A stretch of 8,299 bases of DNA from a virus (lineage: Duplodnaviria > Heunggongvirae > Uroviricota > Caudoviricetes), in IMG/VR virus record IMGVR_UViG_2579778916_000005. The stretch is one strand, 5' to 3'. Of the stretch, positions 4,401 to 8,299 are shown piece by piece. Made by a program: the position numbers and the translations under genes. The first letter of the stretch is position 1. The number at the start of each line of letters is the position of its first letter. The notes under the pieces were generated by a model, which saw only the letters and a list, made by a program, of their open reading frames with translations, was not told the origin of the DNA and made no database searches.

Positions 4401-4799
4401 ATCGCCGGCTGACTTCTTCGCGGCTGCCGTGTTCTGTGCCACTGCGGACGCGTTACGCGCCACCTCTTCCACCATCAGTTCAAAACGGCGCAGTGCCTCT
4501 GGCCGGACATCATCCTCCGTCATTGCACCGAGGAAATCATTCAGTGTGCCCGGCTTTGAGTCCTCATATACGGTGATAATCCCGGCGTGTGACGGCGGGA
4601 ATCCCTCCACCAACAGACTGACGCTGTACTGACCATACTCGACGTCCATTGTGTAACGCCCGGCTTCATCCGGGTTTTCTGAGGCCACTGTGTTCACCAC
4701 CACCGTGGTGCTGTTGCGCCTGGCCTTTAGCTGAATGGTGCAGTTTTGTATCGGCTTACCTGCGCCATCTTTCAGTACACCTGAAATCCGTACTGCCAT
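1401..4799 (-). CDS. stf: Side tail fibre protein (Stf; lambda Stf / Rac StfR-like), 1132 aa
   Basis: A 3399-nt ORF. The conserved N-terminal segment ([37 protein letters not shown]...) is followed by a long Ala/Ser/Thr-rich low-complexity region and a C-terminal His-rich HxH region ([24 protein letters not shown]), as in StfR-type side tail fibres. A G-rich Shine-Dalgarno sequence (GGGGGGA) lies just upstream of the ATG at 4797..4799, and tfa follows immediately. Confidence 0.92.
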
Positions 4800-4810
4800 A
4801 TTCCCCCCAC

Positions 4811-4837
4811 AAAAAAGCCCGCCTGAACCGGCGGGCT
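4811..4837 (-). terminator. Rho-independent terminator between lom and stf (minus-strand orientation)
   Basis: GC-rich 8-bp stem AGCCCGCC (4816..4823) / GGCGGGCT (4830..4837) with a 6-nt loop. On the minus strand the hairpin is followed by TTTTTT (plus-strand A-run 4811..4816) and then directly by the stf ribosome-binding site and ATG. An identical element lies exactly 1860 bp upstream at 6671..6697. Confidence 0.7.
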
Positions 4838-4863
4838 GTCATAACACTGTGTTACCTGGCTAA

Positions 4864-5463
4864 TCAGAATTTATAACCGACACCAACGATGAAACTGTTG
4901 GTACGCCAGTCACCGCTGCCGGAGCCTTCATAAGCGACGTCAACGGCCACGGATTCGGTCGGGTTAAACTGCACGCCAGCTCCCCACGCCAGAGACGTGT
5001 TGCTGTGGCGACCGTCATCACTTCCGGTCAGCACATCGTGCGTTTTCCCCTTGTTGTCAGTTACGCGGATATAATCCCCGGAGAAAGTCGACACACGGCT
5101 GTAAGCCATACCCGCCATCGCATACGCGCTGAACCATTCATTCACGCGCACAGACGGCCCCGCCATCACGCTGAACCAGCGATTACGCACGGAATCCTCA
5201 TGCCAGCGGGTATCGCTGTAATGCGTTTTTTGCTCATCTTCAGCGTTGGCATAACTGAATGACGTAATCAGCCCCAGCGTGTCCGTAAACTCATAACGGT
5301 ATTTCACGTTAATCCCGTTCAGATTATCGCTGCCGGGAGCGTTCGTACGGGCATGAAGATACCCTGCGCTCAGTGTGGCCTGCTGCTCAGACGCCCATGC
5401 AGGCGCACCGGATACGGCCAGACAGATGGCTGCGGACAAAATGGCTGCACAAACTTTACGCAT
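4864..5463 (-). CDS. lom: Lom outer-membrane protein (Ail/Lom/OmpX family 8-stranded beta-barrel), 199 aa, copy B
   Basis: The N-terminus MRKVCAAILSAAICLAVSGAPAWA-SE is a typical signal peptide with an AxA cleavage site; the C-terminus ends GYKF (terminal aromatic residue typical of outer-membrane barrels). Overall strong resemblance to lambda Lom. A Shine-Dalgarno GAGAGG lies 5 nt upstream of the ATG. It sits between J-type and stf sequences, as in lambda. Confidence 0.93.
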   Translation of the reverse strand: MRKVCAAILSAAICLAVSGAPAWASEQQATLSAGYLHARTNAPGSDNLNGINVKYRYEFTDTLGLITSFSYANAEDEQKTHYSDTRWHEDSVRNRWFSVMAGPSVRVNEWFSAYAMAGMAYSRVSTFSGDYIRVTDNKGKTHDVLTGSDDGRHSNTSLAWGAGVQFNPTESVAVDVAYEGSGSGDWRTNSFIVGVGYKF

Positions 5464-5487
5464 AATTACCTCTCGCTTTTCTGCAAT

Positions 5488-5511
5488 AAAAAAGGCGCCA
5501 TTTCTGGCGCC
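5488..5511 (-). terminator. Rho-independent terminator between the J fragment and lom (minus-strand orientation)
   Basis: Stem GGCGCCA (5494..5500) / TGGCGCC (5505..5511) with a 4-nt loop. On the minus strand it is followed by TTTTTT (plus-strand A-run 5488..5493), then the lom ribosome-binding site. Confidence 0.65.
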
Positions 5512-5530
5512 CGTATATGGGTTATAAAAT

Positions 5531-6465
5531 TCAGCTGATACTGATGCCTGCGGTGGCTTTCTTCATCACCACAACCAGCAAATCGCTGATACTTGCTGTG
5601 GGATACCAGTCATTTACCAGCCATGCTGACACCGAAAACTCCAGCGTCATGTGGCCGTGACCAGCTGGCATATCAATAACACCACTGTAAATCAGCGTAT
5701 TATCCAGCGCGGTACGGTTATAAATTTCAGCACCATTTTTCTTCACTATCAGGCGGCATGAGGAGTAAATATCAGTATGCTCTCTCTCATGTTTAGCACC
5801 GCTGAATGCCACCGCCGGAATAACAATCTGCCGGTCAAACGGCTGATCGTCATAAATCCTGACGGTAATGGTCCCTGATGGCCACCGCTCCGGTGCCCGG
5901 GAGTCCCGCGGGAAAGCCTTACCCACTGTTTTGACAATATCGCCTTCAATCTGGTTGGCTGACAGTTTCCCTTTAATCTGACAGTTCTCATTTATCGTAA
6001 CGTTGTTGAGCGTCCCGGAGTTCGCATTCACACTGCCACTGATATCTGCATTTTTAGCGGTCAGCTTTCCGTCCGGTGTCAGGGAAAATGCAGGAGGATT
6101 ACCGCCGCTGGTAATGGTGGGAGCCGTCAGATATTTCAGGAACACTTCATTCATGAATATCTGATCACCCTGACCAACAAACATCGGTTTTGTGTTGCCA
6201 TTTGCAGGATTAATCATCGCAATCCTGTCTGCCGCCAGCAGCACCTGACTCTGCATTCCTGCTGGCGTATTCTCAATACCGGCACCGATACCCGCGATAT
6301 AAAGGCGTCCGTCCTGCATCTGCTGCAGCTTCACAGCCCACATGCTGTTCAGGTTATTATTTGTATCAACCTGAACCTTCTGTATCTGCTGGATCGCTGC
6401 ACTCTGATCTTCCAGTTTCTTATTGACGGTCTGTGTGATTTCATTGCTGACATCCGTAATGGACG
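5531..6465 (-). pseudogene. J: Orphan 3' fragment (last ~311 codons) of a second tail-tip host-specificity gene J, lacking its 5' ~75%
   Basis: From 6465 downward the minus-strand frame reads [68 protein letters not shown]..., nearly identical to the J 3' end at 7394..8299 and recognisable as the lambda J C-terminal region, ending [14 protein letters not shown] at 5531. The ORF-track protein (5531..6529) begins with 21 codons ([21 protein letters not shown]) that are stf 5' sequence read in another frame, so there is no native J start. Confidence 0.8.
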
Positions 6466-6659: not shown

Positions 6660-6670
6660 ATTCACCCCAC

Positions 6671-6697
6671 AAAAAAGCCCGCCTGAACCGGCGGGCT
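6671..6697 (-). terminator. Rho-independent terminator between lom (copy A) and the stf 5' fragment
   Basis: Same hairpin as 4811..4837: AGCCCGCC / GGCGGGCT stem with a T-run on the minus strand. It is part of the duplicated module. Confidence 0.7.
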
Positions 6698-6723
6698 GTC
6701 ATAACACTGTGTTACCTGGCTAA

Positions 6724-7323
6724 TCAGAATTTATAACCGATACCCACGATGAAACCGTCAGTGCGCCAGTCACCACTGCCGGAGCCTTCATAAGCAATAT
6801 CAATGGCCACGGATTCGGTCGGGTTAAACTGCACGCCAGCCCCCCACGCCAGAGACGTGTTGCTGTGGCGACCGTCATCACTTCCGGTCAGCACATCGTG
6901 CTTTTTCCCCTTGTTGTCAGTTACGCGAAGATAATCCCCGGAGAAAGTCGACACACGGCTGTAAGCTACACCCGCCATCGCATACGCGCTGAACCATTCA
7001 TTCACGCGCACAGACGGCCCCGCCATTACGCTGAACCAGCGGTTACGAACGGAATCTTCATGCCAGCGGGTATCGCTGTAACGGGTCAGCTGGCGATTCT
7101 TGTCTCCTGCATAGCTGAATGACGTCACCAGCCCCAGTGTGTCCGTAAACTCATAACGGTATTTCACGTTAATCCCGTTCAGATCATCGCTGCCGGGGAC
7201 GTTCGTCGAGGCATGAAGATACCCCGCGCTCAGCGTGGACTGATGTTCAGACGCCCATGCAGGCGCACCGGATACGGCCAGACAAATGGCTGCGGACAAA
7301 ATTGCTGCACAAACTTTACGCAT
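6724..7323 (-). CDS. lom: Lom outer-membrane protein (Ail/Lom/OmpX family), 199 aa, copy A
   Basis: Same length and architecture as copy B (signal peptide ...GAPAWA-SE, C-terminal GYKF). About 21 of 199 residues differ from copy B by my count, clustered at residues 73..81 (AGDKNRQLTR versus ANAEDEQKTH). Identical ribosome-binding context. Confidence 0.93.
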   Translation of the reverse strand: MRKVCAAILSAAICLAVSGAPAWASEHQSTLSAGYLHASTNVPGSDDLNGINVKYRYEFTDTLGLVTSFSYAGDKNRQLTRYSDTRWHEDSVRNRWFSVMAGPSVRVNEWFSAYAMAGVAYSRVSTFSGDYLRVTDNKGKKHDVLTGSDDGRHSNTSLAWGAGVQFNPTESVAIDIAYEGSGSGDWRTDGFIVGIGYKF

Positions 7324-7347
7324 AATTACCTCTCGCTTTTCTGCAAT

Positions 7348-7371
7348 AAAAAAGGCGTCATTCCTGACGCC
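7348..7371 (-). terminator. Rho-independent terminator between J (copy A) and lom (copy A)
   Basis: Stem GGCGTCA (7354..7360) / TGACGCC (7365..7371) with a 4-nt loop. On the minus strand it is followed by TTTTTT (plus-strand A-run 7348..7353), then the lom ribosome-binding site. Confidence 0.65.
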
Positions 7372-7393
7372 CTTTATTGGGGTTATAAATATT

Positions 7394-8299
7394 TCAACGA
7401 ATACTGATGCCGGAAGCGGCTTTTTTGGTCACAATCACCGTACAGTCGGTGATATTGCCTGCCCCCTGATTGCCTTTCTGGAAAATCTTAAACTCCAGAG
7501 TGACGCTTCCCCTGCCACTCGGCATATCAATAACTGCACTGTAACTACCGGGAATGGCCCCTTTAGTTTCTCTGGATGCGATTAATACGCCGTTTTTGCG
7601 AACTTCAAAACCATAACCCGTGTATCGCGTGCCTCCTGGGTTATTTCCGCTCCCCGGATCGTCATACGCTATACCGTTAAAAATAATGGGCGGAATAATA
7701 ATCTGGCGGTCAAAGTTATGATCATCGCTGATGGTGACTGTAACCGTACCGTTTGGTGTTTCCGTGTTACCCCACGTACCGACTTTTTTCGGGAAGGCTT
7801 TTGATACAGCTTTAACGAAATCTCCTCTGACCTGGGTCGCCTCCAGCATGCCCTTAATCGTACAGTTCTGGTTAATCGTGACATTGTTGAGCGTTCCTGA
7901 GTTCGCATTCACACTGCCACTGATATCCGCATTTTTCGCCGTCAGTCTCCCGTCTGATGTCAGGGAAAATGCCGGAGGATTACCGCCGCTGGTAATGGTG
8001 GGGGCCGTCAGGCGTTTCAGGAACACTTCATTCATGAATATCTGATCGCCCTGACCAACAAACATCGGCTTTGTGTTGCCATTCGCAGGATTAATCATCG
8101 CAATCCTGTCTGCTGCCAGCAGCACCTGACTCTGCATGCCGTCAGGGGTGTTCTCAATACCGGCACCGATACCCGCAATATAAAGGCGTCCGTCCTGCAT
8201 CTGCTGCAGCTTCACTGCCCACATGCTGTTCAGGTTATTATTTGTATCAACCTGAACCTTCTGTATCTGCTGGATCGCTGCACTCTGGTCTTCCAGTTT
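7394..8299 (-). CDS. J: Tail-tip / host-specificity protein J, C-terminal ~300 codons (5' part lies beyond the window edge)
   Basis: The frame is open from the window edge at 8299: [97 protein letters not shown]..., ending KKAASGISIR-stop at 7394. This is the lambda J C-terminal region. The ORF-track entry 7394..8224 merely starts at an internal Met. It is followed by a terminator and lom, as in lambda. Confidence 0.9.
   Translation of the reverse strand, partial: KLEDQSAAIQQIQKVQVDTNNNLNSMWAVKLQQMQDGRLYIAGIGAGIENTPDGMQSQVLLAADRIAMINPANGNTKPMFVGQGDQIFMNEVFLKRLTAPTITSGGNPPAFSLTSDGRLTAKNADISGSVNANSGTLNNVTINQNCTIKGMLEATQVRGDFVKAVSKAFPKKVGTWGNTETPNGTVTVTISDDHNFDRQIIIPPIIFNGIAYDDPGSGNNPGGTRYTGYGFEVRKNGVLIASRETKGAIPGSYSAVIDMPSGRGSVTLEFKIFQKGNQGAGNITDCTVIVTKKAASGISIR

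Follow-up and report, generated by a model that had tools for sequence, protein, structure and literature searches.

In phage lambda, tandem duplications are known from classical genetics to arise by illegitimate recombination. In natural transformation, homology-facilitated illegitimate recombination (HFIR) brings in a foreign segment one end of which lies in homology, while the other is attached at a short microhomology of about 3-10 nucleotides (nt). The programmed tail-fibre switches include the invertible segments of Mu (Gin/G), P1 (Cin/C) and e14 (Pin), as well as the diversity-generating retroelements. Finally, lambdoid mosaics with resident prophages were found by De Paepe et al. (2014) to arise by relaxed homologous recombination (PMC3945230). 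Here we compare with these systems a stretch of 8,299 nt (hereafter, the window) from IMG/VR record IMGVR_UViG_2579778916_000005, assigned to the Caudoviricetes, in which the 3' end of the tail gene J, the gene lom and the 5' end of the side tail fibre gene stf occur twice, one set after the other.

Two types of prophages have to be distinguished in what follows. Type A is the resident backbone type at the ydfJ (Qin) site, and type B is a second common lambdoid type that normally resides at att-lambda and has a J tip resembling that of phage 434. The locus is probably a hetero-duplication that arose when an A prophage recombined with a phage or prophage of type B, by way of one illegitimate and several homologous exchanges. 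Most likely, it is a one-off recombination scar rather than a built-in host-range switch.

Two prophage types in one tail locus

The window corresponds, in reverse complement, to positions 8231-16529 of locus L001 on scaffold KK736383.1, a scaffold of 2.78 Mb in the draft assembly GCA_000692575.1 of Escherichia coli BIDMC 74. According to the list of open reading frames (ORFs), all its genes are on the minus strand; in the order of transcription, these are the 3' end of J, lom, the first 64 codons of stf, a second 3' end of J, a second lom, the full-length stf and tfa (Table 1). Since tfa is followed by ydfJ, ydfI, ydfZ and rspR, the window is the right end of a lambdoid prophage integrated at the ydfJ (Qin) site of this strain. 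At its other end, window position 8299 adjoins a run of 2,412 Ns that lies inside gene J (L001 5818-8229). Around this gap, the gene caller gives only a J start of 89 amino acids (aa) and a J end of 301 aa, and upstream of it the scaffold carries the tail genes T, H, M, L, K and I followed by the first 267 nt of J.

A sequence-only reading of the window had described positions 4606-8299 as a diverged tandem duplication with a period of 1860 bp. When the window is compared with itself, both the homology and the periodicity turn out to be real. By BLAST, 4606-5548 aligns with 6466-7411 at 90.3% identity over 950 columns (E = 0), and 5969-6418 with 7851-8299 at 92.0% identity, whereas the receptor-binding part of ~420 nt between these two blocks is too diverged for blastn. 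The repeat search yields spacings of 1860, 1860 and 1881. Specifically, the starts and stops of lom and the stf ATGs (4799 and 6659) are offset by 1860 bp, as the earlier reading had it, but this period applies to the lom/stf part only; in the J part the offset is 1881 bp, owing to indels in the receptor-binding region. Tandem Repeats Finder gave no hits on the whole window, the period exceeding its 500-nt limit. Two head-to-tail copies of one segment are thus present, at spacings of 1860/1881 and with 90-92% identity. The upstream copy begins at J nt 2543, a boundary that is ~49 nt beyond the window end and, hence, out of sight.

Divergence between the repeat copies amounts to 8-13%, and the longest stretches without a difference measure 76 nt (4805-4880) and 71 nt (6336-6406 versus 8217-8287). 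The numbers of differing residues originally reported, 21 of 199 in Lom and 7 of 64 in the N-terminal part of Stf, are exact, and the marked divergence of the C-terminal ~155 codons of J is equally evident, extending over the last ~160 codons and including indels. Each unit does carry the same two terminator-like hairpins: those after lom are identical in sequence, and those after J differ by a compensatory C>T / G>A change in the stem (GGGCGCCAGAAATGGCGCC versus GGGCGTCAGGAATGACGCC) that keeps the pairing. The hairpin scan reported the B copy of the latter only as its plus-strand complement. The precomputed Pfam assignments place PF09327 (Phage_Tail_Tip) and PF12421 (Ig_GpJ_C) on both the 301-aa and the 332-aa J products, the full-length relatives of which are annotated as gpJ, and PF06316 (Ail_Lom) together with PF13505 on both lom products. 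The Ail/Lom outer-membrane protein is a beta-barrel of ~199 aa with a signal peptide, and both lom copies are full-length ORFs of 199 aa.

The two copies do not come from one ancestral sequence in the same genome, each being of a different prophage type. At least 25 complete E. coli genomes have, in a ydfJ-site prophage, a single-copy J-lom-stf region that is identical (100%, full length) to unit A together with the next 200 nt of stf (4400-6465). For unit B (6466-8299), an equally complete match is offered by the single-copy J-lom-stf region of an att-lambda-site prophage in at least 14 complete E. coli genomes. The sequence-only reading was therefore right that the duplication is not a fresh one and that the units might match different lambdoid prophages. 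Strain 13KWH46 holds both types, with unit A (100%) in a ydfJ prophage and unit B (99.9%) in a prophage beside bioA-ybhB, in the att-lambda region; the two are ~870 kb apart and in opposite orientation. The rest of the BIDMC 74 locus follows type A. Upstream of the gap, including J nt 1-267, L001 shows 2 mismatches to A in 5,817 nt versus 93-94.5% identity to B, and from the join to the host flank it aligns to the A prophage; tfa shares 99.8% identity with the tfaQ gene of the 13KWH46 prophage at ydfJ, compared with ~95% for B loci. The order of parentage along the scaffold is, accordingly, A, gap, B (1,834 nt) and A. Unit B is also found, by exact protein look-up of LomB, in several other lambdoid backbones that have different tape-measure and I proteins, so that this module clearly moves by recombination. 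Across the gap region, the J genes of A and B are 88-99% identical and share exact runs of up to 139 nt, which provide a substrate for a hidden homologous crossover and, at the same time, a reason why the assembly broke there.

The place where the two units meet was defined in a three-way alignment with the 13KWH46 parents. Here, stf breaks off at nt 194 (codon 65) and J sets in at nt 2543 (codon 848 of 1159); in single-copy loci, these two sequences lie apart. Parent B reads CTGTTGGTGGA up to the join and GGGATT beyond it; parent A reads AAATCAGGA and, beyond the join, CGTCCATT; the recombinant reads CTGTTGGTGGACGTCCATT. The microhomology is limited to the 3 nt GGA, by which the BLAST halves overlap. 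The reading frames do not match across the join; hence, the Stf stub stops 8 codons past it, at 72 aa in total. The frame of the J fragment is open back to an ATG at 6529, the first 21 codons of the resulting 332-aa ORF being out-of-frame stf sequence, and there is no Shine-Dalgarno sequence before this ATG. The first 150 nt of the truncated stf are 100% identical to stf of phages 434 and BP-4795.

The join falls within a run of 30 nt that is identical in A and B (stf nt 183-212), and differences between A and B continue past it on both sides: in stf, the sites that differ extend to nt 394, and in J, nt 2533 and 2553 are such sites. On both flanks, parental alleles persist until 10-14 nt from the join, which argues against an old duplication with one-sided conversion as well as against an artefact of the k-mer graph. 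An artefactual join at a repeat boundary is, indeed, excluded by the differences that continue on either side. Of the two origins that the sequence-only reading had left side by side, a join of tail modules from two lambdoid phages is supported; an old duplication followed by cassette replacement is disfavoured, as it would need a conversion tract ending within ~10 nt of the join. An old duplication in situ with later divergence or conversion is rejected, since the copies are 100% identical to different extant prophage types and parental up to 10-14 nt from the join.

The join is absent from 5,426 complete E. coli genomes, from 50,697 phage records, and from the IMG/VR viral contigs and the metagenome contigs of the Joint Genome Institute (JGI). 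The 332-aa ORF that spans it corresponds to KDG22621.1 of E. coli BIDMC 74 and is found on exactly one contig among ~15 billion proteins, a collection from which the two short ORFs of the truncated stf are missing. The sole match to the join query at full coverage, in E. coli MS20659 (hit H31), was set aside as a different rearrangement, with the pieces in normal order and the J tip and lom deleted. In that genome (NZ_CP082073.1, L004 5828-9338), J is truncated at ~nt 3102 and an N-terminal fragment of stf follows 45 nt further on.

The full-length stf is itself a mosaic. When typed at 75 sites at which two A loci can be told from two B loci, it is of type A at nt 10-394 (45 sites; window 4406-4799), of type B at nt 411-2976 (25 sites; 1824-4389) and again of type A at nt 3024-3345 (5 sites; 1401-1776). 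Over nt 395-3023, it differs at only one position from the B loci L010, L007 and L009, which are themselves 100% identical to unit B, and the upper A-to-B crossover lies in an identical interval of 16 nt between nt 394 and 411. Taken together, the B donor supplied lomB with the 3' end of J before it and, from stf, the stretches nt 1-194 and nt ~400-3000. The piece from nt 195 to ~400 is missing, and exactly there sits the A segment, which runs from J nt 2543 through lomA to stf nt ~400. The locus is, then, most economically described as an A backbone with a B-type cassette for host range that is split by a 2.07-kb A segment with one illegitimate and one homologous end.

Table 1. Features of the tail locus in window coordinates, in the order of transcription
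Feature	Position	Strand	Details
J 3' end, B type	7394..8299	-	J nt 2592 to stop; truncated at 8299 by the N gap; PF09327 and PF12421
Post-J terminator-like hairpin, B copy	7354..7371	-	GGCGTCAGGAATGACGCC followed by TTTTTT
lom, B copy, 199 aa, Ail/Lom outer-membrane beta-barrel	6724..7323	-	ORF; PF06316
Post-lom terminator-like hairpin, B copy	6676..6697	-	Same sequence as the hairpin at 4816-4837
Truncated stf' ORF	6441..6659	-	64 B-type codons (6659..6466, stf nt 1-194), 8 out-of-frame J codons and stop
Novel join, GGA microhomology	6466..6468	.	stf (B) nt 192-194 = J (A) nt 2543-2545; three-way alignment
Orphan J 3' fragment, A type	5531..6465	-	J codon ~848 to stop; inside the 332-aa ORF 5531..6529
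Post-J terminator-like hairpin, A copy	5493..5512	-	Hairpin scan
lom, A copy, 199 aa	4864..5463	-	ORF; Pfam; 100% identical to ydfJ-site prophages
Post-lom terminator-like hairpin, A copy	4816..4837	-	Hairpin scan
Full-length stf, side tail fibre, 1132 aa, A/B/A mosaic	1401..4799	-	Typed at 75 sites
tfa, tail fibre assembly gene, 193 aa, A type	820..1401	-	99.8% to tfaQ of the 13KWH46 ydfJ-site prophage

A few other observations concern the surroundings of these features and the related loci. In complete genomes, the ydfJ gene beside the A-type prophage is annotated as a pseudogene that lacks its N-terminus (L002 9404-10687; L015 6803-8086), as would be expected if the prophage had integrated into ydfJ (the Qin site); the product that the gene caller gives for ydfJ of BIDMC 74 has 427 aa. 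The genome CP090272.1 has two prophages (L005 and L006, at 3.67 Mb and 4.08 Mb) with identical LomB and a 1165-aa J in different backbones, the I proteins being of 190 and 200 aa. In GCA_016820415.1 (L012 4215-5930), the tail gene T and a 237-aa ORF are directly followed by a 234-aa C-terminal fragment of J, lomB and stf, apparently as a result of a large deletion from the tape-measure gene into J. The ydfJ-site prophages of AH01 and PSS-07 (hits H202 and H211) carry IS1 insertions in the stf/tfa region. Within the window, positions 3373-4402 contain, on both strands, long alternative-frame ORFs (263-335 aa) over the Ala/Ser-rich central part of stf and short direct repeats phased at 21 nt (families D4 and D7); these ORFs look like by-products of biased composition.

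Origin of the join

Under the scenario of recombination between two prophages, the locus would be read, in the order of transcription, as follows: the A-type tail genes and the 5' end of J; the unassembled gap; the B-type 3' end of J, lomB and the first 194 nt of stf; the A-type J from nt 2543, lomA and the first ~400 nt of stf; the B-type body of stf (nt ~400-3000); and, finally, the A-type end of stf, tfa and the host flank. The junction of stf nt 194 with J nt 2543, at its 3-nt microhomology, would be illegitimate, and the remaining switches would have occurred in homologous sequence. The most likely mechanism is homology-anchored illegitimate recombination, or template switching, between two co-resident or co-infecting lambdoid genomes, which could have taken place either in one messy event of serial template switches or in two steps, i.e., an exchange of cassettes followed by insertion of the 2.07-kb A segment. 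The resulting structure, as any direct repeat, can collapse by homologous recombination to either single-copy form, a property that is a by-product and not an evolved switch. Recombination dependent on Red or RecA is known to bring stf/tfa DNA of the Rac and Qin prophages into lambda; a divergence of 12% lowers the frequency in the lytic cycle only ~100-fold, and illegitimate exchange appeared to be much rarer (PMC3945230).

Several points weigh against this scenario. The structure is known from one draft scaffold only, which was assembled from short reads and has, inside J, a gap that adjoins the repeat, and the join, being found in no other collection searched, is without replication. The homologous crossover in J that the scenario calls for is hidden inside the gap, and so is the intactness of J. 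With four switches of parentage, either two events or a single complex one must be assumed. The microhomology by itself proves little: by our calculation, 3 nt are expected by chance at ~5% of random joins.

The draft state of the scaffold makes it necessary to consider an error of assembly or scaffolding. In this case, BIDMC 74 would have an ordinary A prophage at ydfJ and an ordinary B prophage at att-lambda, and a 1.83-kb piece of B would have been spliced into the unresolved J of A. We regard such an error as unlikely. It would account for the position of the gap, which begins at the window end inside J, for the 100% identity of both units to separate prophages that co-occur in related complete genomes, and for the uniqueness of the join across all collections searched; moreover, many draft assemblies break in the 3' region of J, and the 90% cluster holds numerous 'partial' C-terminal fragments of J. 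However, with an overlap of only 3 nt and with A and B differing on either side, both overlap and de Bruijn assemblers would need reads that contain the join. A stray B contig would be expected to reach the true repeat boundary at stf nt ~400 and not to end at nt 194, and the units are not separated by Ns. The A-to-B switch at stf nt 394-411, with its 16 identical bases, is too short for a mis-path in the graph. The length of the gap, if the non-round value of 2,412 Ns is taken as a mate-pair estimate, matches the 2,275-2,324 nt of J that are missing under the tandem order, as opposed to the ~440 nt that a true distance of 2,275 nt to the A part would predict if unit B were spurious. Furthermore, the 2.78-Mb scaffold has a single entry for lomB in the exact protein look-up, in which a genome carrying two copies has two entries.

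The join could also be real and yet mark a large rearrangement of the chromosome, such as an inversion of ~870 kb between the A and B prophages, the A tail genes having been misplaced upstream of unit B. The arrangement in 13KWH46, with the two prophages ~870 kb apart in opposite orientation, is suitable for such an event: exactly this join would result from an inversion with its breakpoints at nt 194 of stf(B) and nt 2543 of J(A), and the sequence upstream of 8299 is hidden by the gap. We nevertheless consider this explanation highly improbable, because the scaffold ties the A-type tail genes to unit B at a distance of one J gene, because two simultaneous illegitimate joins would be required, and because the B-type block in the downstream stf would be left unexplained.

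Receptor-binding tips and the proposed host-range switch

The two J ends have different receptor-binding C-termini. The B tip (the last 165 aa of J) is 100% identical to those of mEp332, ev243 and Kati and 97% identical to that of phage 434 J; the central tail fibre of phage 434 targets OmpC (PMC12502783). By this similarity, the B tip, being 434-like, probably binds OmpC. The A tip (the C-terminal 159 aa) is 96.9% identical to that of PhiR55_1 and 95% identical to those of long-tailed Stx2a phages. The sequence-only reading had assumed an intact J upstream, which is not demonstrated, the window end adjoining the 2,412-N gap. If J is intact upstream of the gap, it would end in the B tip, and the phage would display this tip, while the A-type J fragment would remain as a silent, out-of-frame remnant. 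Judging from the sequence, lom would further be doubled and a 72-aa Stf stub encoded, with the full stf still intact.

The presence of two tips in direct repeats led the sequence-only reading to suggest a deletion-based host-range switch. In the strong form of this suggestion, the locus would be a maintained two-cassette system, in which recombination between the repeats moves a spare receptor-binding region from its place downstream into the expressed J. The geometry of the deletions it foresaw is correct, as it would be for any direct repeat: recombination of 5969-6465 with 7851-8299 and beyond would give J the A tip, and the orphan fragment would be lost if the lom / stf-5' parts recombined. 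Exact runs of 71 and 76 nt are available for this purpose, and Red recombination tolerates ~12% divergence (PMC3945230). A host-range switch as the function of the locus is, however, unsupported, and we consider a maintained two-cassette locus very improbable. It would have to reconcile a single occurrence with more than 5,400 complete genomes and with phage, viral-contig and metagenome collections in which there is none. The deletion is irreversible and would allow a one-shot change at best; there is no recombinase or other dedicated machinery, no inverted repeats and no conserved join. The copies differ by ordinary, mostly synonymous substitutions, and one of the repeat boundaries is an out-of-frame accident, the downstream J fragment being out of frame and devoid of a Shine-Dalgarno sequence.

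The known types of programmed switches find no counterpart here either. The window has no inverted repeat pairs of 20 nt or longer, and its ORF list includes no invertase-sized ORF other than tail genes and no reverse transcriptase ORF. The differences between the A and B copies are ordinary, mostly synonymous transitions without adenine bias (18 versus 15 in lom, 10 versus 7 in J). An invertase-type tail-fibre switch (Gin/Cin/Pin) is rejected for want of inverted repeats and of an invertase ORF in the window, and a diversity-generating retroelement for want of adenine bias in the mismatches and of a reverse transcriptase ORF.

The notion of a spare tip can be put as one-shot bet-hedging, in which a silent second J cassette with its own lom would, through deletion by Red or RecA upon induction, give phages of either receptor specificity. 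In this form, too, we consider it very improbable. A weaker version, which we find likelier than the spare tip, is that the locus represents a frozen intermediate of module exchange. If this were the case, replacement of the host-range cassette in lambdoid phages could proceed via insertion by an illegitimate join and subsequent collapse of the repeat.

Comparison with known systems

The kind of event that is envisaged here, a tandem duplication or a homology-anchored illegitimate join within lambdoid mosaicism, is known; the instance would be new. If the join is real, it provides a natural and datable non-homologous join between two identifiable co-resident lambdoid prophages, with homologous exchanges beside it within a few kb. 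As such, it would bear on the question of the homologous versus illegitimate origin of phage mosaicism, illegitimate exchange having been found to be much rarer in experiments (PMC3945230). The locus also shows how the receptor-binding tip of J can be swapped so that the old tip is left as a remnant. At the same time, this is a single structural variant in one draft genome, without sign of selection or recurrence, and its value is mainly cautionary: when a 'diverged tandem duplication' is met in a prophage-rich draft genome, the paralogous prophages should be compared first, and adjacent assembly gaps should be checked.

Of the systems outlined at the beginning, the programmed switches share with this locus the presence of two alternative receptor-recognition sequences side by side in a phage tail locus. 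They differ in that the present locus lacks inverted repeats, an invertase or reverse transcriptase ORF and adenine-specific substitutions, and in that any change would be an irreversible deletion. The lambda tandem duplications resemble the locus in other ways: in both cases, there is a head-to-tail internal repeat with one join of minimal homology, the added DNA is within the limits of packaging, and the structure is unstable to homologous recombination. Here, though, the copies were never identical, and the join is between two genomes and not between sister copies.

The mosaics of De Paepe et al. involve the same genes, stf and tfa, the same Qin (ydfJ) site and exchanges between sequences that are 88-98% identical, and the A/B/A blocks of stf are what such exchanges would be expected to leave (PMC3945230). 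The exchanges found in that work were homologous, whereas this locus has one clearly non-homologous join. HFIR offers a parallel in that one end of the insert is attached at a 3-nt microhomology (GGA), and resident sequence is duplicated or retained beside the insert. As for a homologous anchor at the other end, the sequence around the A-to-B switch at stf nt 394-411 is homologous, and the switch in J is inside the 2,412-N gap, where an anchor in J would be hidden. The partners, too, are different from those of HFIR, namely, two prophages or phages in place of a genome and transforming DNA.

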